From Patescibacteria group bacterium (lineage in GTDB: Bacteria; Patescibacteriota; Minisyncoccia; Minisyncoccales; Staskawiczbacteraceae): DNA of 64,000 bases. The notes below the pieces were generated by a model. It was not told the origin of the DNA. It saw only the letters and a program-made list of their open reading frames with translations, and did no database searches. Both the position numbers and the translations under genes were made by a program. The stretch is taken from contig JAHJTG010000016.1 in NCBI GenBank assembly GCA_018829965.1, positions 93,537-157,536 of the forward strand, given 5' to 3'. Positions 2,079 to 49,699 of the stretch are shown in pieces; the stretch's first letter is position 1, and every line of letters begins with the position of its first letter.

Positions 2079-3809
2079 ATGAACATAGAAACAATTCGTC
2101 ATTCATTGGCTCATATTATGGCTTATGCCATTCAAGAACTTTATCCGAAAACAAAATTCGGAATCGGCCCGGCAGTAGAAAACGGGTTTTATTACGATAT
2201 TGAAACTCAAAAACCGATAAGGCCAGAGGAATTGTCAAAGATTGAGGAAAAAATGAAAGAGCTAATTAAACAAGACATCAAGTTCAAGAAAAAACTAACC
2301 AATAAAGCCCAAGCGAAAAAGATATTTAAGAGCCAGCCGTATAAGCTGGAGCTTATCAAGGAACTCAAAGAAAAGAATGCCACTATCTACGAATCAGGCG
2401 ATTTCATTGATTTGTGTAAAGGACCGCATATAAAGTCTGGTAAGGAGATAACTCCTGATGCTTTTAAATTAACAAGGATTGCCGGAGCTTATTGGAAAGG
2501 CAGCGAAAAGAATAAAATGCTGACCCGCATTTACGGATTGGCTTTTGCTTCTAAAAGAGAATTGATTGATTATTTAAACAACCTTGCTGAGGCAGAAAAG
2601 AGAGACCATAGGATTATCGGGCAAAAATTAGACTTATTTGTTTTTTCTGATTTAGTTGGACCAGGCCTTCCTCTTTTTACATTCAAAGGCGCCACCATTT
2701 TAAAAGAGATAAAAGATTATTGCAACGAACTTCAAAATGAAATCGGCTACCAGGAAGTACAAACTCCCAACATGAATAGAGCCGAACTCTTTAAAATTTC
2801 TGGCCATTATGAAAAATTCAAAGACGACATGTTTAAAGTTGTTTCACATTATACAGAAGAAGACTATTATCTAAAACCGATGAACTGCCCTCAACATACG
2901 CAGATATATGCTTCGAAACCAAGAAGCTATAAAGACCTGCCTATAAGAATTGCTGATTTTGCCCAACTTTATAGAGACGAAAAAACAGGGGAACTTTCTG
3001 GCCTTACGCGTCTGCGTGGATTTGCCCAGGATGACGGCCATTCCTTTTGCAAAGAAGATCAGATAAAAGATGAGTTTAAGTCTGTACTTTCTGTTATTGA
3101 GAAAGCAATGAAAACTTACGGGATGAATTATAAGATAAGATTTTCACTATGGGATCCGAAACATCCCGAAAAATATTTGGGCGATACTAAAATTTGGAAA
3201 AAATCGCAACAAATGCTTGAAGAAATCTTAATTGAAAACAAAATTGAATATTTCAGAGCAATCGGAGAAGCAGCTATGTACGGCCCGAAAATGGATTTAA
3301 TATCAAAAGATTCTTTAGGAAGAGAATGGCAGATATCAACTATCCAATTAGATTTCATTATGCCTCAGAGGTTCGGCTTAAAATATGTTGACTCTGACGG
3401 AAAAGATAAAACTCCGGTCATGATACACCGGGCAATAGTCGGCTCTCCGGAAAGATTCTTCGGCATTCTGATTGAACATTACGCGGGCAGTTTTCCTGTT
3501 TGGCTTTCCCCTATTCAAGCTTGGGTTGTGCCAGTGGGAGATAATCACAAAAAATATGCCAAAGAAATTTGCGAGAAATTATTAAATGAAAAAATAAGAG
3601 CGGAGATAAAAGACGACAATAATACTATTTCAAAAAAGATTAGAGAGGGGGAAATACAAAAAATCCCTTATCTTTTAATTGTTGGTGATAAAGAAATTAA
3701 ATCAGGTTCCGTAGCAGTAAGGGAAAGAAAGAAAGGAGATGTCGGTATGATAAAATTTGCTCAATTTATTGAACAAATTAAAAAAGAAATAGAGACCAAG
3801 AAATCCTAA
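2079..3809 (+). CDS. thrS: Threonine--tRNA ligase lacking the N-terminal TGS domain
   Basis: 576 aa. Starts at editing-domain motif RHSLAHIMA. Class II core YRDEKTGELSGLTRLRGFAQDDGH, HRAIVGSPERF, and a C-terminal anticodon-binding domain. Confidence 0.95.
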   Translation: MNIETIRHSLAHIMAYAIQELYPKTKFGIGPAVENGFYYDIETQKPIRPEELSKIEEKMKELIKQDIKFKKKLTNKAQAKKIFKSQPYKLELIKELKEKNATIYESGDFIDLCKGPHIKSGKEITPDAFKLTRIAGAYWKGSEKNKMLTRIYGLAFASKRELIDYLNNLAEAEKRDHRIIGQKLDLFVFSDLVGPGLPLFTFKGATILKEIKDYCNELQNEIGYQEVQTPNMNRAELFKISGHYEKFKDDMFKVVSHYTEEDYYLKPMNCPQHTQIYASKPRSYKDLPIRIADFAQLYRDEKTGELSGLTRLRGFAQDDGHSFCKEDQIKDEFKSVLSVIEKAMKTYGMNYKIRFSLWDPKHPEKYLGDTKIWKKSQQMLEEILIENKIEYFRAIGEAAMYGPKMDLISKDSLGREWQISTIQLDFIMPQRFGLKYVDSDGKDKTPVMIHRAIVGSPERFFGILIEHYAGSFPVWLSPIQAWVVPVGDNHKKYAKEICEKLLNEKIRAEIKDDNNTISKKIREGEIQKIPYLLIVGDKEIKSGSVAVRERKKGDVGMIKFAQFIEQIKKEIETKKS

Positions 3810-3998
3810 ATCCCAAACCCTAAACTCTAAATAAGCCCAAATTCCAAAACCCCAAATCCAAAAGTGTTTATAATTATAAGCGAGGATGGAAAAGAAAAAT
3901 TTATTTTTATTTTTCAACCGAGCGAAATAATTATGTGGCAACGCCACAATAATTTAGATATTTGGATTTTGAATTTGTTTAGAATTTAGAGTTTAAAA
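3801..3998. repeat. Composite intergenic palindrome: AAATCCY heptamer arm, AGCGAGG...CCGAGCGA core element (3871-3952), TTTAGRR heptamer arm
   Basis: Read directly: aaatcctaaatcccaaaccctaaactctaaat (3801-3863), then tttagatatttggattttgaatttgtttagaatttagagttt (3953-3998) in inverted orientation. Confidence 0.7.
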
Positions 3999-7564: not shown

Positions 7565-8938
7565 ATGACACAAAAATATTACATAATAACTTTCGGCTGC
7601 CAGATGAATGTATCGGATTCGGAAAGAATCGCAGCGGTTTTAGAATCTATAAAATACAAACCTGTTCAGAAAATAGAACCTGCTGATTTGGTTGTAGTAA
7701 ATATGTGTTCTGTGAGACAATCAGCCGTTGACCGAGTTTTTGGTTTAAACCAAAAACTCGTCAAACTCAAAAACCACAACCCACAACTCACAACTATATT
7801 AACTGGCTGTGTTCTAAAAAAAGATGAGAAAAAATTATCCAGATTTTTTGATTACATTATCAATATTAAAGATATTGGAAAACTGCCTAAAATTTTAAGA
7901 AACAAAAATGAGGGAAAAAAAGATTACCTTAGAATAAAACCAGCGCACGTTAATAAATTTTCTGCAATAGTGCCGATTATGACTGGATGTAATAATTTTT
8001 GCGCCTACTGCGTTGTCCCATACACTCGTGGAAAGGAAGTTTCAAGGCCGGCCAAAGATATTATCTGCGAGATTAAAAACTTAATTAAGCGCGGATACAA
8101 AGAAATCTGGCTGATGGGACAAAACGTGAACTCTTACGGAGTTCAACGCGAAACTGATGCGAAACAAAACGCGAAACTGATGCGAAACAAAATAAACTTT
8201 CCTAAATTATTAAAGATGGTAAATAATATTCCAGGAAACTTTTGGATAAGGTTTACCTCTTCCCATCCTAAACCCAGCACTAGGGCAAAGCTCAGTGCTG
8301 GACTAGTCCCGTACCGAAACAAAGTTTCTGGTACGGGGGATTTTTCTTGGAATGAATTAATCAATATTATAGCTAAAGGAGAGAAAATCACCCCCTACCT
8401 TAATCTTCCGGTCCAAGCTGGTGACGATAAGGTTCTGAAAAGAATGAATAGGCCTTATACAATAAAACAATATATAAATATCATTAAGAAAGTCGGAAAG
8501 AAAATTCCTGATATTTGTCTTTCAACAGATATAATTGTCGGCTTCCCCGGAGAAACAAAAAAACAATTTCAGAATAGTGTTAAATTGTTTAAAGAGATAA
8601 ATTACGACATGGCATATATCTCAGAATATTCTCCAAGACCAAAAACAATGTCCGCTAAAATGAAAGACGATATTTCCATAGAAGAAAAATCTGAAAGAAA
8701 AAGAATTCTAAATAATATCTTAAAAGAAACTGCGTTGGGAAAAAACAAACGATACGTCAATAAAGTTGTAGAAGTTTTACCAATGGAATATAAGAACGGA
8801 CTCTTATTTGGTAAATCTTGGCACTATAAAACAGTGAAGTTTAAAGGGAATAAAAACCTGATCGGAAAATTCGTTAAAGTAAAAATTACTAACGCTTTGC
8901 CTTGGATACTGGAAGGAAAAATAGAATATAGAATTTAG
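7565..8938 (+). CDS. miaB: tRNA-i6A37 methylthiotransferase MiaB (radical SAM)
   Basis: N-terminal UPF0004 domain (YIITFGCQMN), CNNFCAYC radical-SAM cluster, C-terminal TRAM domain. Carries two internal repeat insertions. Confidence 0.9.
   Translation: MTQKYYIITFGCQMNVSDSERIAAVLESIKYKPVQKIEPADLVVVNMCSVRQSAVDRVFGLNQKLVKLKNHNPQLTTILTGCVLKKDEKKLSRFFDYIINIKDIGKLPKILRNKNEGKKDYLRIKPAHVNKFSAIVPIMTGCNNFCAYCVVPYTRGKEVSRPAKDIICEIKNLIKRGYKEIWLMGQNVNSYGVQRETDAKQNAKLMRNKINFPKLLKMVNNIPGNFWIRFTSSHPKPSTRAKLSAGLVPYRNKVSGTGDFSWNELINIIAKGEKITPYLNLPVQAGDDKVLKRMNRPYTIKQYINIIKKVGKKIPDICLSTDIIVGFPGETKKQFQNSVKLFKEINYDMAYISEYSPRPKTMSAKMKDDISIEEKSERKRILNNILKETALGKNKRYVNKVVEVLPMEYKNGLLFGKSWHYKTVKFKGNKNLIGKFVKVKITNALPWILEGKIEYRI
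8273..8338 (+). repeat. 66-nt twin-hairpin insertion, in frame inside miaB
   Basis: ccagcact...agtgctgg and cccgtacc(gaaac aaa gtttc)ggtacggg. Splits the conserved SSHPK|DF motif and is translated PSTRAKLSAGLVPYRNKVSGTG. Confidence 0.7.
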
Positions 8939-8970
8939 GATTTAGGATTTAGAATTTAGAATAAAAAATC

Positions 8971-9882
8971 ATGGATAATAAAAACAAAAAAATTATTGTT
9001 ATCGTTGGGCCGACGGCTTCTGGAAAAACCGATCTATCTATTAAACTCGCCAAAAAATTCAAGGGCGAGATAATTTCTGCTGATTCAAGGCAGGTCTATA
9101 AAGGAATGGATATTGGTACTGGAAAAGTGACCAAAAAAGAAATGAGAGGTATCCCCCATTATCTTTTAGATGTTATATCGCCTAAAAAAAGATTTGATGT
9201 TGCTCAATATAAGAAGCTGGCAGAGGAAGCAATCAATAGGATATATAAGAAAAATAAGCTTCCTTTTTTAGTCGGTGGCACTGGTTTTTACATCCAAGCC
9301 GTAATTGATAATATTTCAATGCCTAAAATTAAGCCAGACTGGAAATTAAGGAAAAAGCTGGAAAAGAAGCCTATTCCCGAGCTATATAAAATGCTGGTTA
9401 AATTAGACCCTAATAGAGCCTCTAATATTGATAAAAATAACCCCAGGCGTCTAATAAGGGCCCTAGAAATCGTTCTAAAATCAAAGAGGCCTGTGGGTCC
9501 GCTAATCCCTCAAAAACCACGATTTAAGGCATTATTCTTAGGAGTAAAAAAAGACCAAAAAGAATTAAAAAACTTGATTGAAAAACGACTATTAAAACGA
9601 CTAAAAAGCGGAATGATAAACGAAGTTAAAAAACTCCATCGCTCCGGAGTTTCTTGGAAACGATTAGAAGAATTCGGCTTAGAATACCGTTTTGTCGCAC
9701 AATACCTGCAAAAGAAATTAACTTACAATGAAATGATCCAAAAACTGGAAAAAGAGATAGAACATTACGCCAAAAGACAAATGACTTGGTTTAAGCGCGA
9801 TAAGCGAATTAAATGGATTAAGAATATAAAAGAAGCGGATAAATCAGTTAAAAATTATCTAATATTGACAGATAAAAAATAA
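8971..9882 (+). CDS. miaA: tRNA dimethylallyltransferase
   Basis: P-loop GPTASGKT, SADSRQVYKGMDIGTGK, typical length of 303 aa. Confidence 0.92.
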   Translation: MDNKNKKIIVIVGPTASGKTDLSIKLAKKFKGEIISADSRQVYKGMDIGTGKVTKKEMRGIPHYLLDVISPKKRFDVAQYKKLAEEAINRIYKKNKLPFLVGGTGFYIQAVIDNISMPKIKPDWKLRKKLEKKPIPELYKMLVKLDPNRASNIDKNNPRRLIRALEIVLKSKRPVGPLIPQKPRFKALFLGVKKDQKELKNLIEKRLLKRLKSGMINEVKKLHRSGVSWKRLEEFGLEYRFVAQYLQKKLTYNEMIQKLEKEIEHYAKRQMTWFKRDKRIKWIKNIKEADKSVKNYLILTDKK

Positions 9883-10403: not shown

Positions 10404-11925
10404 ATTTGAGAATATTTTTCAACAATTTTTGAACCATTTCGGGATTAGCTTTGCCTCGGGTTTCTGCTATAACCTTTCCTGCTAAAAACTGCAAAGCATT
10501 CTGTTTTCCTTTTTTAAAGTCGTCTACTGCACTTTGGTTTTTTTCGATTACACTTTTAATCGCTTTTTCAATTTCTTTTTCGTCGCTAATCTGACTTAAG
10601 CCTTTTTCTTCAATAATCTGTGAAGGATCTTTACCAGTTTGCAACATTTGCACTAAAACTTCTTTCGCTGTTTTGCTAGTTATTTTTCCGTCGTTTATAA
10701 GAATTATAAATTCAGAGAAGTCTTCCGGAGTTATCGCGCATTCTTTCTCTGAAAATTGTTCTCCTAATAAGCCTTGTAGGTCTGTAATGATATAATTACT
10801 AGCTAATTTAATTAAAGACTGTTTTTTATCTTTTTTTGCCTCTGTTTCAATCTCGCTGATAACTTTTTCAAAATATTCTCCTAGGTCTTTGTTATCGGTA
10901 AAGATTTCTATAGATTTTGCATCCAAGTCATACTCTTTTTCAAATCTTTTTCTCTTATTCGCCGGCAATTCTGGGATTTCAGCCTGAACGCTGTTTATAA
11001 GTTGTGAGTCCAATATGATAGGTGGTATATCTGGCTCTGGAAAATACCTATAATCATGCGCTTCTTCCTTCTCCCTCTGACTGAATGTCTCCTCTTTGTT
11101 GTCATCCCAGCCACGTGTTTCCTGAATTACTTTTTTCCCGTCGTCTAAAACCTCTGTTTGCCTTTTAATTTCGTAATTAACTGCCTTCTCCGCCGCTTTA
11201 AAAGAGTTTAAATTCTTTATTTCCACCTTTGTCCCGAGTTTAGGATTTTGGACTTTCGATTTTGAATTTGTTTCGGATTTAGAATTTAGGATTTCGGATT
11301 TGAGTGGAAGTAAGCTTATGTTTACTTCGACTCTTAGTTGTCCTTTTTCCATATCAGCATCGGAAACCTCCAGATATCTTAAAATTAATTGCAGCTCCTC
11401 GGCAAAACGTCGTACTTCTAATCCTGATTTCAAATCAGGCTCTGTTACTAGTTCCATTAAGGGCATGCCTGCTCGATTATAATCAACTAAAGAATAGTCC
11501 ACGCCTTTTGGATGTAAAAGACGACCAGTATCTTCTTCTAGGTGTATCCTCGTAATTCTAATTTTCTTTAAATATAACTCTGAAAAATCTTGAGATACTG
11601 GTATTTCTAAAAAGCCTTTTTCACAAAACGGTTTATCATATTGAGAAATCTGATAACCTTTTGGCAAATCTGGATAGAAATAGTTTTTCCTATCAAACTT
11701 TGACTCTTCATTAATCTTGCAGTTTAAAGCTAATCCTGTTTTTACAACTTTTTTTATTGCTTCTTCATTAGCAACCGGAAGCGTCCCCGGGTGCGCCATA
11801 CAAATCGGGCAAATATTAAAATTCGGCTTTTTCTCATCCGGATCGTTCTTACAAGAACAAAACATTTTAGAGTTAGTTTTCAACTCCACGTGTATTTCTA
11901 ATCCTATTGTTGTTTTGTAATTCAT
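10402..11925 (-). CDS. gatB: Asp/Glu-tRNA(Asn/Gln) amidotransferase subunit B
   Basis: MNYKTTIGLEIHVEL, CPICMAHPGTLP, C-terminal GatB/YqeY domain. Contains a heptamer-array insertion at 11239-11301. Confidence 0.93.
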   Translation of the reverse strand: MNYKTTIGLEIHVELKTNSKMFCSCKNDPDEKKPNFNICPICMAHPGTLPVANEEAIKKVVKTGLALNCKINEESKFDRKNYFYPDLPKGYQISQYDKPFCEKGFLEIPVSQDFSELYLKKIRITRIHLEEDTGRLLHPKGVDYSLVDYNRAGMPLMELVTEPDLKSGLEVRRFAEELQLILRYLEVSDADMEKGQLRVEVNISLLPLKSEILNSKSETNSKSKVQNPKLGTKVEIKNLNSFKAAEKAVNYEIKRQTEVLDDGKKVIQETRGWDDNKEETFSQREKEEAHDYRYFPEPDIPPIILDSQLINSVQAEIPELPANKRKRFEKEYDLDAKSIEIFTDNKDLGEYFEKVISEIETEAKKDKKQSLIKLASNYIITDLQGLLGEQFSEKECAITPEDFSEFIILINDGKITSKTAKEVLVQMLQTGKDPSQIIEEKGLSQISDEKEIEKAIKSVIEKNQSAVDDFKKGKQNALQFLAGKVIAETRGKANPEMVQKLLKNILK

Positions 11926-12413: not shown

Positions 12414-12420
12414 ATATTTT

Positions 12421-12507
12421 ATAATTACAAGTGAAGGAGGAATATATGGAAACGAGTTTCTATATATTCCGACCGAACGACTAATTATATAAATTGCGGA
12501 GCAATTT
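12421..12507. repeat. AGCGAGG...CCGAGCGA-family modular hairpin element (variant GTGAAGG...CCGAACGA)
   Basis: ataattacaagtgaaggaggaatatatggaaacgagtttctatatattccgaccgaacgactaattatat, plus a second small hairpin. Confidence 0.7.
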
Positions 12508-13332
12508 CTAAACAGCCATTGGCGCTTTAATCGACGGATGATATTTATAGTCAACCAGCTTTATGTCTTCCATCTTAAAACTAAATATATCTTTTACTTC
12601 TGGGTTCAGCCATAATTTTGGCAAAGGATAAGGCTCTCTCGCCAACTGCTCTTTTACCTGGTCAAAATGATTTAAATAAATATGCGTGTCGCCTAAAATA
12701 TGCACAAATTCCCACGGCTCCAATCCCACAACCTGAGCCACCATATGTAAAAACAATGAATAAGAAGCAATATTAAACGGCACGCCTAAAAATGTATCGC
12801 AACTTCTTTGATACATTAACAAAGACAATTTGCCTTGAACGGAAAAAAAATGGAAAAGTAAATGGCAAGGCGGAAGAGCCATCATATCTAACTCTGCCGG
12901 ATTCCATGAAGACGCAATAATTCTTCTGTCTCCAGAATTTTTTTTCAATTGAGAAATAACATTGCTTATCTGATCTATCGGCACATCAGTATAAGGCGAC
13001 CTCCAGTTTCTCCATTGAACTCCATAAACTCTGCCCAAATCTCCCTCAAACTTTGCTTTTGGCTTCCAATAATCTGCATTAGCATTGCCATCCCAAATAT
13101 GACAACCTAGTTTTTGTAACTCTTTTACATCACTGCTTCCAGATAAAAACCAAAGTAATTCTGCTTTCATTGATTCAAATGCTAATTTTTTTGTTGTCAC
13201 TGCAGGAAAACCGTCTTTCATATTAAATCTCATCGGAACTCCGAAAATAGCTCGAGAACCAACTCCAGTTCTGTCAGGTCTATCAACACCCTCATCCATT
13301 ATTTTTTTTAAAACATCTAAATATTGCTTCAT
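12508..13332 (-). CDS. thyA: Thymidylate synthase (ThyA type)
   Basis: 274 aa. DRTGVG, PPCH (LPPCHLLFHF), DTHIY motifs. Confidence 0.95.
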   Translation of the reverse strand: MKQYLDVLKKIMDEGVDRPDRTGVGSRAIFGVPMRFNMKDGFPAVTTKKLAFESMKAELLWFLSGSSDVKELQKLGCHIWDGNANADYWKPKAKFEGDLGRVYGVQWRNWRSPYTDVPIDQISNVISQLKKNSGDRRIIASSWNPAELDMMALPPCHLLFHFFSVQGKLSLLMYQRSCDTFLGVPFNIASYSLFLHMVAQVVGLEPWEFVHILGDTHIYLNHFDQVKEQLAREPYPLPKLWLNPEVKDIFSFKMEDIKLVDYKYHPSIKAPMAV

Positions 13333-13401: not shown

Positions 13402-14106
13402 TTATATTAATTTTTTTAAAAAAATTAATATTTTTTGATTTATTATTTCCGGTGACAATAACTCACTTTTATCCAAACATTCCACAACTTTAAAATCCTT
13501 TGGAAATTCTTTCGCTGCCGTTAAATAAGAATTAAGAGCGTTTTTTAAATGACTTCTGTCTTTTTCGTGTATATCTTGTTTTTTACTACTTCCCAAATAA
13601 GCTTTTCTTCTGTTTTGTTTATCTTTATCTGTTATGTTGTGTGCTAGCTTTAAAGAAAACTCTGGTGACGTTTTCAAAATAAACGTACAATCCGGCTTTG
13701 GTATTTTAAAAATATTATATTCTAAATTATACAACCAATTTACATATTTCTTCCATTCTTTTTTGCTTTTTATCTTTCCTCCTTGATGCCCAATATTTGA
13801 AACTAAATACCTGTCCGAAATAACAATCTTGCCTTCGTTTAACCATTTTTTAATTTTAAAACTAGCGTCATATCTATCACAAGCATAAAAAATAGAGGGA
13901 ACATAAGCCCCCACTTCTTCTGAGCTCCCGTATTTACCTGTTAAGTAATCATCTACTAATGCCGAGGATCTTTCTCCATGTTGTGGAAAATCAATTTTTT
14001 CTACTTTATATCCTTTATCTTTAAAATACTCAATCGCCAATTTTGCCTGAGTGGCTTTGCCACACCCATCAATTCCCTCGAAAACAATAAATTTTCCTTT
14101 TTTCAT
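13402..14106 (-). CDS. tmk: Thymidylate kinase
   Basis: FIVFEGIDGCGKATQ P-loop, DRY motif (SDRYLVS). Confidence 0.85.
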   Translation of the reverse strand: MKKGKFIVFEGIDGCGKATQAKLAIEYFKDKGYKVEKIDFPQHGERSSALVDDYLTGKYGSSEEVGAYVPSIFYACDRYDASFKIKKWLNEGKIVISDRYLVSNIGHQGGKIKSKKEWKKYVNWLYNLEYNIFKIPKPDCTFILKTSPEFSLKLAHNITDKDKQNRRKAYLGSSKKQDIHEKDRSHLKNALNSYLTAAKEFPKDFKVVECLDKSELLSPEIINQKILIFLKKLI

Positions 14107-14198
14107 AATTATGAGCGAGGAAGGGATATATGGAAACTCGTTTCCATATATTCCGACCGAGCGATTAACTATATAAACGGCTTCGCCGTTTATATAGT
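14105..14198. repeat. AGCGAGG...CCGAGCGA modular hairpin element (best-preserved copy)
   Basis: ataattatgagcgagg-aagggatatatggaaac-tc-gtttccatatattcc-gaccgagcga-ttaactat, then the perfect hairpin actatataaacggc-ttc-gccgtttatatagt. Confidence 0.75.
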
Positions 14199-16996: not shown

Positions 16997-17017
16997 ACAC
17001 TTTTTGTTTCACAAAAG

Positions 17018-17149
17018 AAACTCTAAATTCTAAGCTCTAAACTCTAAACAATATCAAAACTCTAAATTCAAATAATTAAAACGTTTTTAGATTTTGAATA
17101 TTTAATATTTGGATTTATTTAGGATTTAGGATTTGGGATTTAGGATTTT
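17018..17149. repeat. Arm-inverted heptamer arrays (CTCTAAA-type arm, then TTTAGGA-type arm) forming a ~130-bp imperfect palindrome
   Basis: Left arm 17018-17074, right arm 17084-17149. Fills the secE-nusG spacer. Confidence 0.7.
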
Positions 17150-17156
17150 ATTAATA

Positions 17157-17366
17157 TTATTTATATAAGATGAATCTCTTAATTAATTCCGTAAAAATAT
17201 AGTCCAAACCGCCCAAGAAAGCAGCTGCCACAAAGGTAATTAAAATTACAATCATTGTGTATTTAAAAAGTTCCTGGCGGTTCAACCAATTAACTTTTCT
17301 GAGTTCTATATATACTTCCTTCAAAAAACTTTTAGTTTTAGCTGGAATATTAGAAATTTTGATCAT
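17157..17366 (-). CDS. secE: Preprotein translocase subunit SecE
   Basis: 69 aa. KEVYIELRKVNW motif plus a single C-terminal TM helix. Classical position upstream of nusG. Confidence 0.8.
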   Translation of the reverse strand: MIKISNIPAKTKSFLKEVYIELRKVNWLNRQELFKYTMIVILITFVAAAFLGGLDYIFTELIKRFILYK

Positions 17367-17515
17367 GCCCAGTATATCATCTTCCAGACAACCAAAAAAT
17401 TATATTATTTATTTGGTTAAATGGATTAATTATTATAGTATCTACATACCCAGAACCAACTTCTTATCTTTTTGTTTGATGCGAATTAAGAATACTGGAA
17501 GTTGTATTACTGGGC
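17367..17515. mobile_element. Foldback (MITE-like) element, copy 1 of 2
   Basis: Terminal inverted repeats gcccagtatatcatcttccag and ctggaagttgtattactgggc (17/21 complementary). Shares termini and the internal ttggttaaatgRattaa with 49547-49691. Confidence 0.6.
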
Positions 17516-17565
17516 ATGTTAAAATTATATTAAGATTTTGGCTAAAAGTCAACGAATTAAGGTAA

Positions 17566-17587
17566 TTAAAAACGGCCGCGAGGCCAT
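17566..17587 (-). terminator. Rho-independent terminator after the NUDIX gene
   Basis: Minus strand reads atggcc-tcgc-ggccgt followed by TTTTT. Confidence 0.55.
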
Positions 17588-17646
17588 CTATTTCTAGATT
17601 AGCCGAGATGATAAAAGAAGTCAATGCTTTTAAAATACTTGTAAAT

Positions 17647-18139: not shown

Positions 18140-20779
18140 TTATATATCTAAGTTCTTTACCGTCTTTGCATGAGTCTGGATAAATTTCTTTCTTGGCTCT
18201 ACCTCTTCGCCCATTAAAATATCAAAAATTTTATCTGCCTCTCTGGCGGTATCAATTGTAACCCTTAATAATAATCTATTTTGAGGATTCATTGTTGTCT
18301 CCCAAAGCTGTATTGAATCCATTTCTCCCAAACCTTTATATCGTTGGATAGAAATACTTTGATTTTTATTAACTGTTTTCAAAAGCTTCTCTTTTTGTTC
18401 GTCGTTATAGACATGCTTTATTTCTCTGCCAATCTGTATTTTATAAAGCGGTGGCTGAGCGATATAAATATATCCAGCGTCAACCAATGGTCTGAAGTGA
18501 CGATAGAAAAGAGTTAAAAGTAATGTCCTAATATGGGCGCCATCAACATCAGCATCAGTCATAATAATAACTCTATGATATCTTAGTTTTTCTATATTAA
18601 AATCTTCGCCAATCGCTGTCCCTAGAGCAATAACCAAAGCTCTTATCTCTTTTGAATCCAACATTTTGTCCAAACGAGCCCTTTCCACATTTAGAATCTT
18701 GCCTCGTAAAGGTAAAATCGCTTGAAAATGCCGGTCTCTTGCTTGTTTTGCGCTATTATGAACAAAAACCCCCGATGCCAATGCAAAGTTATGAGTATTC
18801 TTAACTTCTAAATCATAAACATCTACCCTTTCTTTCAATTTAACTATTCTTTTAATTTTATGGTTATAGCTTGAAACTGTTTGTTCTAATACTCTTTCTT
18901 TTCTAAAACATTCTTTATGAAAAGGCATTAAAGAATCTTCTGTTTTTAAGTCTTTTGCCATTTTGTAATTTCCGCCCCTCAACATAAACTTGTGATCTGG
19001 CGTACAAATCATCTCTTCGTCATTATCTAAAACAACTTTAATAACTTCTGCGTTTTCTTTTGTTTTTCTTGGATTATCAATTGGCTCGATTCCAACACTA
19101 CCGTCATTTTTAATTGTATAACAATAATTCTTCTTTCCTTGTTTATGTTCTTCAACCAAATTTTCAAAAGATAAGTTTCTTCCATCAGCTAAAGCAACTT
19201 CAGTTTTTCCAAACCAACAACCACCGGCACTCTCTCCTTCGACGATATACAATTCTGATTCTTCTGGTTTTCTTGAAAGACAATCTGCAAGTTTTCCAGG
19301 CAACGCTAATCCTTCTAATACTCCTTTTCTTAAAACTGTCTGACGAGCGCTTTTTGCCGCTTGCCTGGCTTTTGCCGCCAATAAACAGTTTTCAACAATT
19401 CCTTTAGCATCTGATGGGTAACGTTCTAAATAATCGCTTAAACCTTCTGCCACAGCTGTCTCTACGGCGTTTTTGGCTTCTGGGTTTCCTAATTTTGCTT
19501 TTGTCTGGCCCTCAAATTGAGGATTCCTTATTTTTACAGAAATTACTGAAGTTAATCCTTCTCTTACGTCTTCACCTGAAAGATTTTCATCTTTTTCTTT
19601 TAAGTATCCTTCCCTTCTAGCATAATCATTTAATGACCTCGTTAAAGCCGCCCTAAAACCAGTTAAATGAGTGCCTCCTTCTGGAGTATAGATATTATTG
19701 GCAAAACTTTCTTCAATGCATTCCATCTCTTGGGTATATTGAAAAGCTGCTTCAACTGCGATTTCGTTTTTTGTAGTAGCTATGCTGAAAACATTAGGAT
19801 TTCTTGGTGTATTCCCAGTAGTTAAATATTTTACGTAAGAAGCCACTCCCCCTTCAAAATAAAAGGCGTAGCTAAATTTCTCTTTAGAATTTCTTTCATC
19901 TGAAAAAGAAATCCTAACCCCCTTAGTAAGATAAGCCTGTTGGCGTAAATGATTTAGAATCTTCTTAGAATCAAATTTTATCTCTTTAAAAATATCTGGA
20001 TCTGCTTGGAAAGTAACAGTGGTTCCTGTCTTTCTGCAAGCTCCTATTTTTTTAACCGGAGACTTTACATCACCCTTAGCATATTCCTGCATATACAAAC
20101 CGCCATCTCTGCAAACTTCTGCTCTCATTTGAATAGACAATGCGCAAACAACAGAAACGCCGACACCATGCAAGCCTCCAGATACCTGATATGCTTTACT
20201 ACCAAATTTACCACCAGCATGTAAAACCGTCATTACAGTTTCTAATGCTGATTTTTTAGTTTGAGAATGTTTTTCTACTGGAATGCCTCTGCCATCATCA
20301 GAGACTTTAACCAAATTGTCTTGCAAAAGAGAAACCTCTATATTTTTACAATGACCAGCCATCGCTTCATCCAAGCTATTATCAATAACCTCCCAAATTA
20401 AATGATGAAGACCATCCAAACCAGTTGAGCCAATATACATTGCTGGTCTTTTTCTTACCGCCTCAAGACCTTTTAAAACATAAATATCTTTAGCTGTGTA
20501 TTCGTCCTTTCCTGTTTTTTCTTTTAAAGGCTTCTCGTCTCTCACTGTCTCAATAACCTCTTTTTCTACTTTAGTTTGTCTTGTTTTAGTTTTAATAGAT
20601 TCAACCTTAGTCGGTTTAACTTTAGCCACAACAGCTTTCTTGACTATTTTTTCAGCTTTTGGTTTCTTCTTTCCCTCACCTGCAACGCTATGCCAGCCCG
20701 CAGTAGATACAGCGTTTCTGGCGGGCGAAACATTGCGGGCAGGTTCTTTTATCTCTCTTATTTTTATTTTTATAGCCAT
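18140..20779 (-). CDS. gyrB: DNA gyrase subunit B, interrupted by a mini-intein. The long Lys-rich 5' extension is of uncertain translation.
   Basis: VLKGLEAVRKRPAMYIG, GGLHGVG, EGESAGG|intein|SAKQARDR, Toprim and C-terminal motifs. Possible alternative GTG start at 20545. Confidence 0.9.
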   Translation of the reverse strand: MAIKIKIREIKEPARNVSPARNAVSTAGWHSVAGEGKKKPKAEKIVKKAVVAKVKPTKVESIKTKTRQTKVEKEVIETVRDEKPLKEKTGKDEYTAKDIYVLKGLEAVRKRPAMYIGSTGLDGLHHLIWEVIDNSLDEAMAGHCKNIEVSLLQDNLVKVSDDGRGIPVEKHSQTKKSALETVMTVLHAGGKFGSKAYQVSGGLHGVGVSVVCALSIQMRAEVCRDGGLYMQEYAKGDVKSPVKKIGACRKTGTTVTFQADPDIFKEIKFDSKKILNHLRQQAYLTKGVRISFSDERNSKEKFSYAFYFEGGVASYVKYLTTGNTPRNPNVFSIATTKNEIAVEAAFQYTQEMECIEESFANNIYTPEGGTHLTGFRAALTRSLNDYARREGYLKEKDENLSGEDVREGLTSVISVKIRNPQFEGQTKAKLGNPEAKNAVETAVAEGLSDYLERYPSDAKGIVENCLLAAKARQAAKSARQTVLRKGVLEGLALPGKLADCLSRKPEESELYIVEGESAGGCWFGKTEVALADGRNLSFENLVEEHKQGKKNYCYTIKNDGSVGIEPIDNPRKTKENAEVIKVVLDNDEEMICTPDHKFMLRGGNYKMAKDLKTEDSLMPFHKECFRKERVLEQTVSSYNHKIKRIVKLKERVDVYDLEVKNTHNFALASGVFVHNSAKQARDRHFQAILPLRGKILNVERARLDKMLDSKEIRALVIALGTAIGEDFNIEKLRYHRVIIMTDADVDGAHIRTLLLTLFYRHFRPLVDAGYIYIAQPPLYKIQIGREIKHVYNDEQKEKLLKTVNKNQSISIQRYKGLGEMDSIQLWETTMNPQNRLLLRVTIDTAREADKIFDILMGEEVEPRKKFIQTHAKTVKNLDI
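18755..19219 (-). mobile_element. Mini-intein (155 aa, no endonuclease domain) in the GyrB EGDSAGG-SAKQGRD site
   Basis: Starts CWFGKTEV (Cys1), block B TPDH, ends GVFVHN followed by Ser+1. The exteins rejoin to the conserved EGESAGGSAKQARDR. Confidence 0.85.
20676..20742. repeat. GC-rich palindromic element type B (core tgccagcccgcagtagatacagcgtttctggcgggcg)
   Basis: The 37-bp core at 20691-20727 is 35/37 identical to 53807-53843. Outer stem acctgc/gcaggt. Confidence 0.75.
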
Positions 20780-35390: not shown

Positions 35391-37319
35391 TTACTGCCTG
35401 CTCTTAAATATCTCCAAGAATGCCCGATGGGAGATTTCAACCCTCCCCTTCTCCTTTAATAGCTTTTTTCCTTTCTTCTGTTTCTCTAAAAGTTTTCTTT
35501 TTCTTGTCACATCTCCTCCGTATAGATAACCGGTGACATCCTTTCTTCTGGCCCTGATTGTTTCACGGGCTAAAACCTTGCCTTGAACTACTGCCTGCAA
35601 AGCAACTGAGAATTGTTCCGGAGGCAAAACATCTTTTAATTTTTCTACCAAAAACTTTCCTTCCCTATATGCTTCGTCTTCGGAAACAATCTTTGAAAAC
35701 GCTTCTTCTGAGTGTCCTGCAATCCAAATTTCCATTTTTACCAAATTACCTGGCCTAAAACCTAAAACCTTATAGTTCATTGAAGCATAACCTTGGCTTA
35801 CGCTTTTTACTTTATCGTAAAGATTGCTAATAATCCCGCGCAAAGGCACTTCATAAATAATAATTGCCCTATCTTGGCCAAAATATTGGGTATCAACATA
35901 GATTCCTCCGGTATTTTTTAAAATATCAGAAAGCTTGCTTATGTAAACACTCGGGGTAATAAGCTCTAAAGACACCCAAGGCTCTTCAGTTTTTTGGATA
36001 AAGGTAGCATCCGGCCAATCCGAAGCTGAATAGATAAATTCTTCTTTGCCCTTTTGATTAAAGATTTTATAAACAACCGATGGCGTTGAAATCACTAGAT
36101 TAAGACCGAATTCTCTTCTTAGTCTTTCAGAAGCAATCTCAACGTGTAAAGTACCTAAAAATCCGCATCTGTATCCTCTGCCTAAAGCTTCTTTTGTTTC
36201 GGGCTCAAATATAAAAGATGGGTCGCTTAACTTTAGTTTTGCCAATGCGTCTTTTAATAAATCAAAGTCGCCAGCATCCTGCGGATAAAAACTGGCAAAA
36301 ACCATTGGTCTTGGTTCTAGATAACCATGCAGGGGTTGGATTTCAGAGGCTTTTAATTTAAACTGCTGGCTTGAAACAATTGTATCGCCGACCCTTACCT
36401 TGCCTGGCTCTTTAATTCCTGTAGCAATATATCCGATTTCACCTGCTGAAATCTTTCCTTGAGCAACAGGTCCTGGCATAAAATATCCTATTTCTTTTAT
36501 CTCTGCTTCAGTATTCGTAACCATCAACCTTACTCTCTCGCCTGCGTTAATTTCACCATCAACAACTCTGATAAAAGCAATGACTCCTTTATAGGCATCA
36601 TAATCTGAATCAAAAATTAAAGCCCTAAAAGGTTTTTGAGTATTTATTTCTGGAACAGGAACTTCTTCAATAATTTTACTTAAAAGAGTATCTACATTAG
36701 CTCCTGTTTTCCCAGAGATTCTAAGAATTTTCTCCGGATCAATGCTTAAAAGATTAGCGATTTCTAAAGCGCTTTCTTCAATTCTGGCATCTGGCGCATC
36801 TATTTTATTCACCACAGGAATTATTACTAAATTTTGTTGTTTAGCCAACTCTAAATTAGCTAATGTCTGGGCTTGAATGCCTTGAGTGGCATCAACCAAT
36901 AAAACTGCTCCTTCAACTGCAGCCAAAGCTCTTGAAACTTCGTAGGAGAAATCAACGTGGCCTGGAGTATCTACCAAGTTCAAAACATATTTTAAACTTG
37001 GAAACTCTAAATTCGAAGCACTAAATTCTAAACTATTGGTTTCGGATTTTGGGTTTTGGGTTTTGGGTTTATTTAGAATTTCGGATTTAGGATTTAGGAT
37101 TTGCGAATGATATATCATTCGTACTGGTTTAAGTTTAATTGTAATCCCCTTTTCTCTTTCTAAGTCCATTCTATCCAAAAACTGCGGTTTCATTTTACCC
37201 GGCTTTACCGCTCCAGTTATTTCTAAAAATCTATCGGCTAAGGTAGATTTCCCATGGTCAATATGGCTAATAATTACAAAATTACGTATATTCTCCTGCA
37301 TATTTATATTTTTTACCAA
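35391..37319 (-). CDS. lepA: Elongation factor 4 (LepA)
   Basis: NFVIISHIDHGKSTL, DTPGHVDF, NKID, LepA C-terminal domain. Contains a ~37-codon heptamer-array insertion. Confidence 0.93.
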   Translation of the reverse strand: MVKNINMQENIRNFVIISHIDHGKSTLADRFLEITGAVKPGKMKPQFLDRMDLEREKGITIKLKPVRMIYHSQILNPKSEILNKPKTQNPKSETNSLEFSASNLEFPSLKYVLNLVDTPGHVDFSYEVSRALAAVEGAVLLVDATQGIQAQTLANLELAKQQNLVIIPVVNKIDAPDARIEESALEIANLLSIDPEKILRISGKTGANVDTLLSKIIEEVPVPEINTQKPFRALIFDSDYDAYKGVIAFIRVVDGEINAGERVRLMVTNTEAEIKEIGYFMPGPVAQGKISAGEIGYIATGIKEPGKVRVGDTIVSSQQFKLKASEIQPLHGYLEPRPMVFASFYPQDAGDFDLLKDALAKLKLSDPSFIFEPETKEALGRGYRCGFLGTLHVEIASERLRREFGLNLVISTPSVVYKIFNQKGKEEFIYSASDWPDATFIQKTEEPWVSLELITPSVYISKLSDILKNTGGIYVDTQYFGQDRAIIIYEVPLRGIISNLYDKVKSVSQGYASMNYKVLGFRPGNLVKMEIWIAGHSEEAFSKIVSEDEAYREGKFLVEKLKDVLPPEQFSVALQAVVQGKVLARETIRARRKDVTGYLYGGDVTRKRKLLEKQKKGKKLLKEKGRVEISHRAFLEIFKSRQ

Positions 37320-39597: not shown

Positions 39598-39607
39598 TAA
39601 AGTTAGA

Positions 39608-39862
39608 AAGCGAGGTGTTAGCGTTAAAAGTAAATTTCACAGGCTCAATTCCCAATCTGTTGAGCGAGGCGACGAGTTTAAAGATAAATTTCGCAGGCTC
39701 AATTCCCAAACTGTTAAGCGAGGCGACGAGTTTAAAAGTAAATTTCGCAGGCAATTTAGCATGGTTTCGCCGATTGGCGACCGCAACCGACCGCAACACC
39801 GGGTGTTGCGGAGTAAGGGGTTTGGATTATCGCCACTTTTATGGCTACTGCCGAGCGACATT
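39608..39862. repeat. Expanded AGCGAGG...CCGAGCGA element: ~2.6 tandem 54-55-bp units plus a conserved ~110-bp GC-rich module
   Basis: Units start at 39608, 39663 and 39717. The tail gcatggtttcgccgattggcg...ccgcaacaccgggtgttgcgg...attatcgccacttttat...ccgagcgaca is shared with 44618-44826. Confidence 0.7.
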
Positions 39863-44617: not shown

Positions 44618-44826
44618 TGTTAAGTGAGGCAATAATGTATACGGAGCACTTCGCGGAGCCAAGCTAAACTGTTAAGCGAGGTGGTAGTTATAAAAGTGCC
44701 TCTCGCGGGCGATTTTGCATGGCTTCGCCGATTGGCGGCCGCAACACCGGGTGTTGCGGAGTTGGTGTTGCGAAGTGAGGGGTTTGAATTATCGCCACTT
44801 TTATAACTACTACCGAGCGACACTCT
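44618..44826. repeat. Expanded AGCGAGG...CCGAGCGA element with a 15-bp perfect stem enclosing the conserved GC-rich module
   Basis: gtagttataaaagtg (about 44684) pairs with cacttttataactac (about 44796). The cargo contains the ccgcaacaccgggtgttgcgg hairpin. Confidence 0.7.
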
Positions 44827-45887: not shown

Positions 45888-47645
45888 TTAAAGTTTAATT
45901 GTTTCTCCGGGGTTAATTACGCCTTTTTTGATCTTGTTTTCCCCAGTAGTAGTCGCTTTGGGCGACACTACGGGGCTACGCTCGCCCTGCGGGGCTCGCT
46001 TGTTTTTTTCAGGGACAGATTCTTCTTCCAGCGATTCTTCTAATGCTTTTTTAAGTTCGCTAATATCCACTTCTTTTCTTTTCGGTTTCTCTTTCTCAGT
46101 TCTTTTCCTTGGAGAAGAAAAAGAAACTACTTCTTTCTCTATGGCCTCTTTTAAAGATACTGTCGGAGCCCTATTAGTTTCTGTCTTCTCGCTTTTTCCA
46201 GAATTTTCCCTAACTTTTTTTAAACAATTTTTACAATAAATAGGCCTTCCTTTTTCTGGTTGGAAAACAACTTTAGTTGGTTTATTACAATTAGAACAAA
46301 TAGCATCATAAAGCGTAGGGGGGGTTCCGGCAGGAGCCGATGAATGAGTTTTCATTGTTCCTTCATCAGTTTCTCCAGTCCAGCGCCTAATTTTATCTTC
46401 AACCAGCTCTCTTCTAACACCGTATCTTTCACGGCTGGTTTTAATAATTTTATCCCTGCTTGATTTTTCTGGCGCTTCTATCGGAGGGAGAGTCTGCGCT
46501 GAGAACGGACGGCCAGCAACTCCATCAATCATTAATTTTAAATAAATATTATACTTTGTTAAACCTACTAAATCTTGGGCGAGAAATTCTGGAGTAAACT
46601 CTCTCTCTAAATATTCTGCATCTTCAGCGCCAATACGGAAAAGAATTAAAGTACCTACGTTTCCAAAAACAGCATCTCTTACTTCGTCCTCCATTTGGGC
46701 TATATATTGATGACCTAAAGTTAAATCTAAGCGATATTTTCTCGCTTCAGATAAAATATTGGCAAATGATTCAGTGGCAAAGTTTTGAAATTCGTCAACA
46801 TAAAGATAAAAATCACGCCTTTCTTCTTCTGGAATATCAACTCTAGACATTGCTGCTAATTGAAGTTTAGTAATCAATAAAGCTCCCAACAGCCTTGAAT
46901 TATCTTCTCCTATTCTGCCTTTAGATAAATTCAAAATTAATATTTTTCCTTCATCCATAATCTTTCTCATATCAATGGTAGATTTCACTTGGCCAATACT
47001 ATTTCTTATTAAAGCGTTTGAAACAAACTGTCCGACTTTATTCTGGATAGCAGCCGTTGCCTCTACTTCATATCTTTGAGTATAGCGGGAGTATTCATTA
47101 ACCCAAAATGACTTAATAACAGGGTCAGTTACTTTTTCTACTACTTTTGCCCTATATTCCGGGTCTGCTAACATTCTATTAACTCCAAGTAAGGTTGAAT
47201 CAGGATATTCTAAGAGCGCTAAAATTGAATTATTTAAAATATATTCCATTCTAGCCGACCAAACATCCGGCCAAACTTTTTTAAAAACACCCATCAAACC
47301 GCCTGCAACTAAATGACGATACCTAAAATCTACTTTTTCCATAACATTAAAAGCTATCGGAAAATCAATGTCAGCTGGATTAAAATAAACTACGTCATTG
47401 ATTCTGCTTGAAGGAACAAAATCAAGCAGTCCCTCTGCCGCTTCACCGTGAGGGTCAACAAAAGCTACGCCCCTTCCTTGCAGAATGTCTTGTCTTGCCA
47501 TATTTTCCATTAAGACGGTTTTGCCCATACCTGTTTTACCAATAATATAAATGTGCCGCCTTCTATCGTCGGTTTTAATTCCGAAATTCTTTTCTTGATT
47601 TCTGAAGGTTGTTTTGCCTATAATAGTTATTTTTTTCTCTATCAT
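45888..47645 (-). CDS. P-loop ATPase of the VirD4/TraD/HerA (DUF87-like) type with a C-terminal CxxC...CxxC zinc ribbon and a Lys/Glu-rich tail
   Basis: Walker A GKTGMGKT, Walker B FYLYVDEFQNF, CSNCNKPTKVVFQPEKGRPIYCKNC. Confidence 0.75.
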   Translation of the reverse strand: MIEKKITIIGKTTFRNQEKNFGIKTDDRRRHIYIIGKTGMGKTVLMENMARQDILQGRGVAFVDPHGEAAEGLLDFVPSSRINDVVYFNPADIDFPIAFNVMEKVDFRYRHLVAGGLMGVFKKVWPDVWSARMEYILNNSILALLEYPDSTLLGVNRMLADPEYRAKVVEKVTDPVIKSFWVNEYSRYTQRYEVEATAAIQNKVGQFVSNALIRNSIGQVKSTIDMRKIMDEGKILILNLSKGRIGEDNSRLLGALLITKLQLAAMSRVDIPEEERRDFYLYVDEFQNFATESFANILSEARKYRLDLTLGHQYIAQMEDEVRDAVFGNVGTLILFRIGAEDAEYLEREFTPEFLAQDLVGLTKYNIYLKLMIDGVAGRPFSAQTLPPIEAPEKSSRDKIIKTSRERYGVRRELVEDKIRRWTGETDEGTMKTHSSAPAGTPPTLYDAICSNCNKPTKVVFQPEKGRPIYCKNCLKKVRENSGKSEKTETNRAPTVSLKEAIEKEVVSFSSPRKRTEKEKPKRKEVDISELKKALEESLEEESVPEKNKRAPQGERSPVVSPKATTTGENKIKKGVINPGETIKL

Positions 47646-47654
47646 CTTAAAAAT

Positions 47655-49052: not shown

Positions 49053-49157
49053 AAAAGGTTTTTGTAAAACAAAAAATGTTTTTTTACTATTATCTTAGTG
49101 ATTTTAACACATAAAAGTAAAAAAACATAGCTATATTTGAAAGAAAAATCTTACTTT

Positions 49158-49337
49158 ATTACTTTGAATTACGAAATGCATTATTAAAAGCAAGTTTCAG
49201 GTCTTTTCTCCAAATTTCAGCTGAAAATTTGCTATAATTATTTGGCGTATGCGTTGCATATGCCTCATAGTTCTATCAAATTTTCGCTCTGAAATTTGGA
49301 GAAAATCCCAAGAAAGCATTCCGTAATTCAAAGTAAT
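49158..49337. repeat. ~180-bp extended imperfect palindrome (long hairpin)
   Basis: Outer 21-bp stem ttactttgaattacgaaatgc/gcattccgtaattcaaagtaa. 17-bp perfect inner stem ttttctccaaatttcag/ctgaaatttggagaaaa. 9-bp gaaaatttg/caaattttc. Confidence 0.7.
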
Positions 49338-49691: not shown

Positions 49692-49699
49692 TCATCTTA

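Follow-up and report, generated by a model that had tools for sequence, protein, structure and literature searches.

Start-codon foldback elements in a Patescibacteria genome: probable MITE-like copies of a very small mobile element with an arm-to-arm GIY-YIG reading frame

Introduction

Among the MITEs (miniature inverted-repeat transposable elements) of bacteria, those of the Correia/NEMIS, ERIC, and RUP families adjoin genes, alter their expression, and are often cotranscribed with the neighbor; Correia elements duplicate TA, occur in both orientations, and lie at distances from genes that vary. In IS200/IS605 elements, target duplication is absent, the target tetranucleotide stands on the left side only, and each end carries a subterminal hairpin of its own. 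Inserts that are bypassed or looped out during translation are located inside coding regions or between Shine–Dalgarno and AUG. Free-standing GIY-YIG homing endonuclease genes between host genes, such as the seg genes of phage T4, are well known, and the Slx1-like/UPF0213 group consists of minimal stand-alone GIY-YIG domains in vertically inherited cellular proteins (PMC1564403). Here, we describe two short noncoding foldback elements, copy A at the gene secE and copy B at a small hydrophobic open reading frame (ORF), in a stretch of 64,000 nucleotides (nt) from a genome of the Patescibacteria, or Candidate Phyla Radiation (CPR) (GenBank assembly GCA_018829965.1, contig JAHJTG010000016.1, positions 93,537 to 157,536). 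This whole stretch, hereafter the window, is low in GC (∼35%), and nearly all of its genes past 10 kb lie on the minus strand. The NusG that it encodes shares 85–87% identity with proteins named Candidatus Staskawiczbacteria.

We read the two elements, with a probability of roughly 0.85, as nonautonomous, internally deleted, MITE-like copies of a very small mobile-element family of Patescibacteria/CPR, the parent of which is a unit of 309–315 base pairs (bp) with a GIY-YIG ORF extending from arm to arm. Longer elements with the same ends do exist, namely 309–315-bp units encoding a GIY-YIG nuclease, and since the window copies have the same arms and remnant coding ends, we take them as derivatives of such units. 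The short copies are noncoding, carry terminal inverted repeats and a target duplication, sit at many unrelated loci, and show presence/absence polymorphism, as MITEs do. A preliminary description of the window had wavered between a MITE with insertion-site preference and a translational control structure of two small membrane proteins, and the results below favor the former. The literature searched, the coverage of which falls short of all journals, yielded no account of the element, which is apparently undescribed.

Results

Two Foldback Elements Abut Start Codons in the Window

Copy A comprises 147 bp (positions 17368–17514, minus strand) and was delimited by the family arms and the CCCAG...CTGGG core; it is oriented like secE and was aligned with 68 other copies of the family. 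It had initially been placed at 17367–17515, of which the core stands, whereas the outer base on each side proved to be part of the flanking duplication. On the gene strand, the 5′ arm (CCCAGTAATACAACTTCCAG, 17495–17514, minus) has a counterpart in full-length elements that encodes PSNTTSS, and the 3′ arm (CTGGAAGATGATATACTGGG, 17368–17387, minus) holds the TGA that ends the nuclease ORF in those elements. Copy B, with 145 bp (49547–49691, minus), exhibits the family arms and the same core, and its 5′ arm (CCCAGTAATACAACCTCCAG, 49672–49691, minus) has undergone a T-to-C change, with compensation in the 3′ arm (CTGGAGGTTGATATACTGGG, 49547–49566, minus), itself a match to the arm pattern. Both copies adjoin the ATG of a minus-strand ORF in the same orientation, just as first reported, with a gap of 0–1 nt between element end and host ATG on the gene strand. 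The host gene of copy A is secE (17157–17366, minus; Pfam SecE, E = 1.5e-18), and that of copy B is a 69-amino-acid (aa) hydrophobic ORF without a Pfam family (49337–49546, minus).

Direct repeats of 4 bp that contain the start codon bracket both copies on the gene strand, in the order CATG, A, CATG and ATGA, B, ATGA. As read from the sequence, the upstream CATG of copy A (17515–17518) includes an ATG at 17517–17515 of the minus strand, which is presumably the original secE start, and the downstream CATG (17364–17367) holds the present start codon (17366–17364, minus). In copy B, the ATGA of the gene strand (TCAT on the plus strand) opens a three-codon ORF, ATG ACC CAG TAA, at its upstream occurrence (49692–49695) and holds the start codon of the 69-aa ORF at its downstream one (49543–49546). 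The upstream ATG of copy A begins an ORF of 17 codons (MPSNTTSSILNSHQTKR followed by a stop; 17464–17517, minus), which comparison with the full-length proteins identifies as a putative decayed N-terminus of the nuclease ORF. These 17- and 3-codon remnants are the only coding capacity of the window copies.

The 20-nt arm pattern was matched four times in the window versus 0.02 expected from shuffles, and a second arm pattern three times versus 0.00, in agreement with the two foldback elements of common termini and internal block that had been noticed initially. The arms pair imperfectly in both copies, exhibiting a 3 × 3 mismatch of ATA opposite ATA on the gene strand. When copies A and B were aligned, the arms and a TTGGTTAAATGRATTAA block were common to them, with ∼30% divergence elsewhere inside; the block is a feature of one subfamily and is unconserved across the family. 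Folding of the gene strand yielded −37 and −48 kcal/mol (z = −3.8 and −4.3 vs. shuffles), and on either strand z ranged between −3.8 and −5.2. Rfam gave nothing at the gathering threshold in the window and only chance-level matches (E up to 10) at either copy, and a search of the window for another ATG-abutting foldback family found none.

Short Copies Occupy the Start Codons of Many Unrelated Genes

A scan of metagenome contigs with a pattern of one full arm plus the other terminus returned at least 115 loci. About 40 of the 115 loci listed were a conserved coding stretch in contigs of 57–69% GC and were discarded as false positives, whereas the true copies number at least 78 (at least 69 distinct), measure 132–174 bp, and reside in contigs of 31–46% GC, many of them from groundwater. 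The common layout of the copies among the matches listed is (N)ATG, then the element from CCCAGTAATACAAC... to ...GTTGATATACTGGG, then (T)ATG. Orientation relative to the flanking ATG and the downstream gene was identical in all 69 listed distinct copies, and the search pattern, being symmetric, cannot have biased it. An exact 4-bp duplication was observed in 55 of these 69 (TATG in 43, ATGA in six, CATG in two, and AATG, TAAT, TACA, and CAAG in one each) and a 3-bp duplication in four, most of the remaining ones being off by a single base. As even the rare tetranucleotides are identical on both flanks, the duplication must be generated by the insertion event and does not belong to the element sequence.

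The gene context of these further copies bears out the association with start codons that the preliminary description had noticed in two: an ORF of 60 aa or more begins at the junction ATG in 50 of the 56 evaluable listed copies, whereas control ATGs from the same contigs open one in 21.5% of cases (p = 3e-27). Names were assigned to the downstream genes by reading their N-termini, and these included mreB, rplY, secF (twice), secG, rplT, alaS (twice), rpsB, rseP, rpsN, and gatB, as well as clpB, murG, rpoB (twice), yidD, rplU, greA, lepB, and a pilin. Altogether, the element precedes over 25 distinct housekeeping genes with all manner of functions, and since these are ordinary housekeeping genes, the tie to tiny membrane proteins suggested by the window copies is coincidental. 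A T at position −1 is commoner in the targets than in background starts (80% vs. 49%; p = 2e-6), which points to some sequence preference in insertion.

The subterminal sequence GTTTGG-nn-CTGGAAG is common to the short copies, the interior being otherwise unconserved across the family. Remnants of the upstream ORF (MPSNTTSS...) are kept in short copies, and some also retain the C-terminal ..QSAFGTGS. Head-to-tail tandem arrays of two to three copies split by TATG were observed on three contigs (L112:1901–2259, L073:3947–4436, and L130:141–570); the L073 array mixes a short and a full-length copy, and the L130 array is a nested composite. No copies were found in phage records, plasmid records, or IMG/VR contigs, and a scan of species-representative genomes with a loose two-arm pattern produced 22 matches, all of them unrelated heptamer arrays. 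Such inverted arrays of the form (CCCAGTA)n...(TACTGGG)n, analogous to the intergenic arrays of the window described below, occur mostly in Acidobacteriota, in metagenome-assembled genomes (MAGs) of Acidobacteriota/Terriglobales (L003–L024; e.g., L005:6091–6221 and L012:3205–3346) and are unrelated to the element.

Filled and Empty Sites Indicate Mobility

Two related contigs, L027 and L074, exhibit reciprocal filled and empty sites at two genes. At a gene for a 260-aa membrane protein, L027 is filled (...AACAATG, the 134-nt element, then ATGCGCAGT...) and L074 is empty (...AAAAATGCGTGAT...); at an rseP-like gene, L074 is filled (...ATCAATG, the element, then ATGCTGACG...) and L027 is empty (...AAGCAATGTTGACG...). 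The empty sites have one ATG and the filled sites two, in the order ATG, element, ATG, with the N-termini of the encoded proteins the same in both contigs. The insertions concerned are near-identical 134-nt short copies. In ten pairs of short copies, the interiors were 88–100% identical and the flanks unrelated, the copies at secG and rpsB reaching 100%, and the presence of near-identical short copies at unrelated genes implies that the short copies themselves have been copied to new start codons. Together with the dozens of unrelated loci and the 3–4-bp duplications, these sites and identities uphold the earlier suggestion of a MITE with insertion-site preference.

The secE leaders of related genomes told against the other suggestion. 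Three relatives (NusG 89–93% identical) have gyrB, a spacer of 68–69 nt, and secE, with no element in the spacer, and their secE leader differs from copy A in consisting of a promoter and a small hairpin; the foldback is therefore not a conserved secE leader. The exact empty site for insertions A and B was not found, the relatives being too divergent right at the ATG. The leader of the relatives, TTGACT-17-TAATCT with a hairpin GATGGCC...GGCCATTTT directly 5′ of the ATG, is conserved among them (L168:1715–1782, L170, and L172), and the ancestral secE leader is still present in the window at 17560–17620 (minus), upstream of a second promoter-like site. In one relative, secE (L170:1719–1994) is annotated as 91 aa from an upstream TTG, which we regard as an annotation problem.

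Full-Length Units Encode a GIY-YIG Nuclease from Arm to Arm

At a few loci the same arms lie ∼275 nt apart and delimit units of 309, 312, or 315 bp, always a multiple of three (in L066, L073, L140, L150, L152, and L158). The single ORF of the full unit starts at the upstream duplicated ATG, so that the 5′ arm is translated (CCC AGT AAT ACA ACT TCC AG, read as PSNTTSS), continues through a GIY-YIG domain, and terminates with the TGA located in the 3′ arm (CT GGA AGT TGA TATACTGGG); the host ATG follows 9–10 nt past this stop codon. Host genes of the full units are a DUF72 gene, cysS, murG, and two others.

The encoded protein has 100–102 aa and matches Pfam GIY-YIG PF01541 at E = 4e-17 (62.7 and 58.8 bits vs. 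a cut-off of 22.6). By sequence, the closest proteins of solved structure are 1zg2 (E = 2.7e-7) and 1ywl, both UPF0213. An AlphaFold2 model (mean predicted local distance difference test, pLDDT, of 75) retrieved 1zg2 as the best Foldseek match, followed by structures of Slx1–Slx4, a structure-specific nuclease (6sei, 6seh, and 7cq2–4), while I-TevI came far below UPF0213 and Slx1 (E = 0.43). By these comparisons, the full-length element protein is assigned to the Slx1/UPF0213 branch of the GIY-YIG superfamily as a putative nuclease. Y14, Y25, G27, R35, and E59 were invariant in 28 and in 62 nuclease sequences, and by analogy these would be the expected catalytic-type active-site residues.

A word-indexed search recovered 704 clusters at 90% identity, nearly all of 100–103 aa. 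All 20 full-length proteins (100–102 aa) that were read start with MP(S/R)NTT. and end in G(S/G), 18 of them with ..FGxGS, and these conserved protein ends are the arm-encoded parts. Clustering at 50% identity leaves about one representative of the clade, within a larger set of 6,748 small GIY-YIG representatives having other termini. In public records, from Nealsonbacteria, Portnoybacteria, and further Patescibacteria, the protein is entered as a "GIY-YIG nuclease family protein" or under the erroneous name "excinuclease ABC subunit C" (P0005, P0013, and P0110; NCBI MAG records). A small GIY-YIG gene that diverges from the present family (38% identity) was observed inside a different, perfect 17-bp inverted repeat (ACCGAGCACATAATTTT...AAAATTATGTGCTCGGT; L100:3890–4081, minus), and many related small GIY-YIG proteins also start with MP... 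and have other common C-terminal tails, for example ..YLTG. The L100 repeat and these other tails suggest sister families with other arms.

The Arms Covary as a Paired Stem

The arm stem comprises a 7-bp helix, the conserved 3 × 3 mismatch, and a 10-bp helix. Across the 66 distinct listed short copies, 98.8% of the arm cells are paired, and six of the ten inner-helix pairs have changed on both sides, a number reached by none of 500 shuffles; covariation, which the preliminary description had proposed to look for in the two window copies, is thus evident in the family. With full-length copies added, 20 distinct arm pairs were available, in which the 17 paired positions are kept paired in 18–20 of 20, the three loop positions are mismatched in 17–18, and eight positions exhibit compensated changes. 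One coding copy combines CCCCGTA with TACGGGG, an outer-helix compensation that replaces Ser by Arg, and further compensation is seen where CCAA pairs with TTGG and where CCCG pairs with CGGG. The arm-encoded residues 1–7 and 99–102 lie outside the folded domain in the model (pLDDT below 50). The compensation, including the change from Ser to Arg, and the position of these ends outside the folded domain indicate that arm pairing is selected even at a cost in amino acids. Covarying arms are predicted by a stem in single-stranded DNA or RNA and not by a transposase reading double-stranded ends. The asymmetry of the arms can be read simply from the coding function, the ATA in the 3′ arm making the TGA stop codon.

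Host Genes and Other Features of the Window

Upstream of copy A, a promoter-like TTGACT-17-TATAAT (17524–17552, minus) has 11 of 12 consensus matches, with its −10 box ending 6 nt before the upstream ATG. This distance suggests, from a consensus match only, that secE was leaderless before the insertion, and the secE mRNA would now open with the 17-codon remnant ORF. The gene upstream of copy B encodes Sigma70_r4 and HARE-HTH domains (49700–50728, minus), and as 4 nt separate its stop codon from the upstream ATGA, copy B resides inside an operon-like junction. Copy B also heads a gene run (45888–49546, minus) that includes a 585-aa coupling ATPase resembling TrwB/TraG along with a membrane protein of 465 aa without a Pfam family, and this run may represent a type IV secretion or competence-like module.

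Other repeats are present in the window. Inverted 7–8-nt repeat arrays of the type CTAAATC...GGATTTAG are intergenic (3800–3995, 8922–8990, 11238–11320, 17017–17149, and 37001–37103) and make up a separate family of long imperfect hairpins, one of which takes up the spacer from the secE stop to the nusG start. A repeat of 94 nt that contains an internal hairpin (GGAATATATGGAAAC...GTTTCCATATATTCC) occurs in two copies, 78% identical (12417–12510 and 14101–14194), each directly upstream of a minus-strand gene start, and is thus another gene-proximal family. A block of ∼200 nt appears twice at 80–90% identity (39600–39860 and 44666–44822), and a palindromic CGTCGAGGATCCTCGATG motif three times (21067, 44554, and 59694). 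The window gyrB (18140–20779, minus) encodes 879 aa with an intein-like insert; in relatives, gyrB either lacks an intein and encodes 651–655 aa or encodes 1078 aa and has a match to Pfam Intein_splicing. At ∼10.4 kb, gene orientation and GC skew switch together, from plus strand and mostly positive skew to minus strand and negative skew, and the cumulative GC skew peaks there as at a replication terminus.

Discussion

A Possible Mechanism

The filled and empty sites and the duplications indicate that insertion takes place precisely at the host start codon and in gene orientation, with 3–4 bp including the ATG being duplicated, whereby the upstream ATG becomes the start of the element ORF and the downstream ATG restores the host gene unchanged. 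The element ORF would then borrow the promoter and initiation region of the host. Behind a full copy, ribosomes could be passed on from the element ORF to the host gene by termination–reinitiation, a process reviewed for overlapping and closely spaced gene pairs (PMC6728339). Behind short copies, either the paired arms may cause the insert to loop out, which would place the native leader beside the host AUG, or translation of the remnant ORF may melt the 5′ arm and free the host AUG. An effect of arm pairing around the host AUG on translation is plausible as a consequence of insertion. The Slx1-like nuclease would act on the arm stem and serve as the mobilizing enzyme, and the window copies may rely on a nuclease encoded elsewhere in the genome or be fossils.

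A more far-reaching proposal, which we advance tentatively and would put somewhat short of even odds, is that these elements form an unrecognized class of prokaryotic transposable element, among the smallest autonomous ones known (309–315 bp). In such an element, an Slx1-like structure-specific GIY-YIG nuclease of ∼100 aa would be the transposase, the inverted-repeat ends inside its gene would act as a paired stem instead of double-stranded binding sites, start codons would be targeted, the promoter, ribosome entry, and ATG of the host would be taken over, and the ribosome would be passed back 9–10 nt past the stop. The family and its parent element are unusual enough for follow-up.

Several observations weigh against the interpretation as MITE-like derivatives of a nuclease-mobilized element. 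The sample of short copies was picked by the arm pattern, among the matches listed. Six of the 69 listed copies are not inserted at an ATG, and all six are intergenic: a stop codon is the site of one and a terminator loop that of another, the others lying 7–39 nt upstream of a start. From these and the ATGA class it follows that the tetranucleotide is no absolute requirement. Start-codon targeting cannot be separated from selection against other insertions. Apart from the subterminal stretches, only nine of the 69 listed copies have an interior closer to the full-length interior than shuffles are. A deletion origin argued from interior similarity was accordingly dropped, most short-copy interiors being no closer than shuffles, and short and full-length elements are linked through their arms, through subterminal sequence, and through the coding ends left as remnants. 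Where the upstream ORFs of short copies terminate varies from copy to copy, and their length modulo three is uniform. Frame-preserving short copies ending at the arm TGA were sought as well and were not found; with stops so scattered, ribosome hand-on at the TGA is ruled out as the way in which host genes behind short copies are translated. The 64-kb window contains no nuclease gene of the family, and the ∼30% internal divergence of copies A and B implies that they may be old and immobile; the window copies are ordinary family members that may be fossils. As for the enzyme, the nuclease is a catalytic core only, with no obvious DNA-binding module, and GIY-YIG nucleases are not known as transposases.

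Alternative Explanations

In one explanation, which we consider unlikely but the strongest of the competitors, the short copies are MITEs of an unseen DDE-type insertion sequence and the GIY-YIG gene is cargo or a second deletion derivative instead of the mobilizing enzyme. Terminal inverted repeats with a 3–4-bp target duplication are the classic DDE signature, and the literature searched yielded no GIY-YIG transposase. Nevertheless, in a limited search of ∼115 loci, no arm pair 0.7–3 kb apart and no solo arm beside a transposase was detected; the conventional transposon with the same arms sought in this way gave only tandem or nested copies and ∼315-bp units. The ORF also extends exactly from arm to arm, with arm-encoded ends, across the 704 protein clusters (20 full-length sequences read), the covariation of the arms is unpredicted by transposase recognition of double-stranded ends, and a strict orientation to a nonpalindromic duplication is unusual for DDE elements. 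Were the full units free-standing homing endonuclease genes, of the kind well known between the host genes of phage T4, the short copies could be products of decay in place that were never mobilized and inherited their start-codon position, and the N- and C-terminal coding remnants in short copies would be in keeping with this. We judge it very improbable, given that short copies 88–100% identical lie at unrelated genes such as secG and rpsB, that the short copies concerned in the reciprocal filled and empty sites, 134 nt in length, are near-identical, and that homing into a cognate allele cannot reach dozens of genes having only NATG in common. The protein, moreover, has no DNA-binding domain as homing GIY-YIG enzymes do, and its fold is nearer to Slx1/UPF0213 than to I-TevI.

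Two further explanations concern the reason for which the elements are maintained at start codons. The 3′ arm could act as an outward promoter, TGATATACT resembling an extended −10 box followed by GGG, which would restart transcription at the host ATG and produce a leaderless mRNA. Such a function would account for both the orientation and the arm asymmetry; the sequence TGnTATACT-GGG-(T)-ATG is found at the 3′ arm of nearly all listed copies, the other arm is without a −10-like hexamer, and several target genes, that of copy A among them, look leaderless before insertion, with the −10 box 6 nt before the ATG. Yet only 4–5 nt separate the −10 box from the A of the ATG in the element, compared with 6 nt in native leaderless-looking promoters of the same contigs, the asymmetry is more simply ascribed to the TGA stop codon of the nuclease ORF, and a promoter scan did not call the 3′-arm site, so that we hold this explanation to be improbable. 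Least credible of all, to the point that we give it next to no weight, is a dedicated cis-regulatory RNA leader hiding the ribosome-binding region and common to secE and the other small membrane-protein gene, as the preliminary description had also envisaged. The strong pairing of the arms, the arm end 0–1 nt from the AUG, the covariation of the arms, and the purine-rich GGAAG/GGAGG in the proximal arm are all features that such a leader would have. The purine-rich candidate is indeed present as proposed, but a role in ribosome binding is not borne out, with GGAGG lying 13–15 nt from the ATG and a Shine–Dalgarno-like motif in only ∼4 of 54 window genes. Shared control of two small membrane proteins is likewise contradicted by the element preceding more than 25 varied genes, mostly not for membrane proteins, by the different, element-free secE leader of close relatives, and by an unconserved interior without an Rfam match, while filled/empty polymorphism and flanking duplications are marks of insertion. 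A cis-regulatory RNA leader is largely refuted on these grounds, being unconserved in orthologous leaders and matching no described RNA family.

Significance

If the reading of the family as start-codon elements mobilized by the GIY-YIG nuclease is true, reduced CPR genomes would carry a selfish element in the start codons of essential genes, where its expression is guaranteed and where its imprecise loss would destroy the start of the host gene. Slx1/UPF0213-type GIY-YIG nucleases would become a candidate for a new transposition enzyme, with a function offered for widespread small proteins. The copies also constitute natural test cases of an AUG directly behind a stable 17-bp stem, or 9–10 nt past an upstream stop, in bacteria without Shine–Dalgarno sequences. 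In practical terms, short copies can mislead start-codon calling, and whether a particular start codon carries the element could serve as a strain marker in groundwater metagenomes.

Comparison with Known Systems

Like Correia/NEMIS, ERIC, and RUP, the short copies measure ∼100–160 bp, are noncoding, have foldback inverted ends and short target duplications, and occur in many intergenic copies. Unlike these, the present family duplicates NATG or ATGN and is always oriented with the gene, 0–1 nt from its start codon; its arms covary around a fixed 3 × 3 mismatch, and the element sharing its ends encodes a GIY-YIG nuclease and not a DDE transposase. With the free-standing GIY-YIG homing genes (T4 seg and the I-TevI family), the full units have in common a selfish nuclease gene placed between host genes and relying on host expression signals. 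Homing enzymes, in contrast, have a C-terminal DNA-binding domain and one cognate site, with neither inverted-repeat ends nor target duplication, whereas the element protein is a catalytic core of ∼80 aa with two arm-encoded tails, and the element is found at dozens of genes together with mobile noncoding derivatives. The identification as a free-standing homing endonuclease gene was ruled out in the absence of a DNA-binding domain fusion and of a single cognate locus. The prokaryotic Slx1-like/UPF0213 proteins (YhbQ, BH0048, and EF2693) resemble the element protein in size, fold, and conserved residues, and the CPR clade departs from the UPF0213 group as characterized in PMC1564403 by its inverted repeats inside the ORF, duplicated ATG flanks, and polymorphic position.

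The strict orientation beside a short target, the dependence on a hairpin, and the very small nonautonomous derivatives are reminiscent of IS200/IS605 and PATEs; in the present family, by contrast, the flanks match on both sides, the two ends pair together, and neither an HUH transposase nor TnpB is found. An IS200/IS605-like insertion without duplication was ruled out by the rare tetranucleotides that match on both flanks. An integron attC site (RYYYAAC ... GTTRRRY) was also considered and discarded, as the ends CCCAGTA ... TACTGGG do not fit and the inner ATACAAC and GTTGATA fit only in part. Finally, the gene 60 bypass of T4, the "byp" inserts of yeast mitochondria, and the T4 gene 25/38 hairpins parallel the short copies in their compact fold and in leaving the host protein unchanged, with identical bracketing codons (here ATG...ATG). 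The start-codon elements differ from all of these bypassed or looped-out inserts in that they follow the initiation codon itself and that their full copies hold an ORF of their own.

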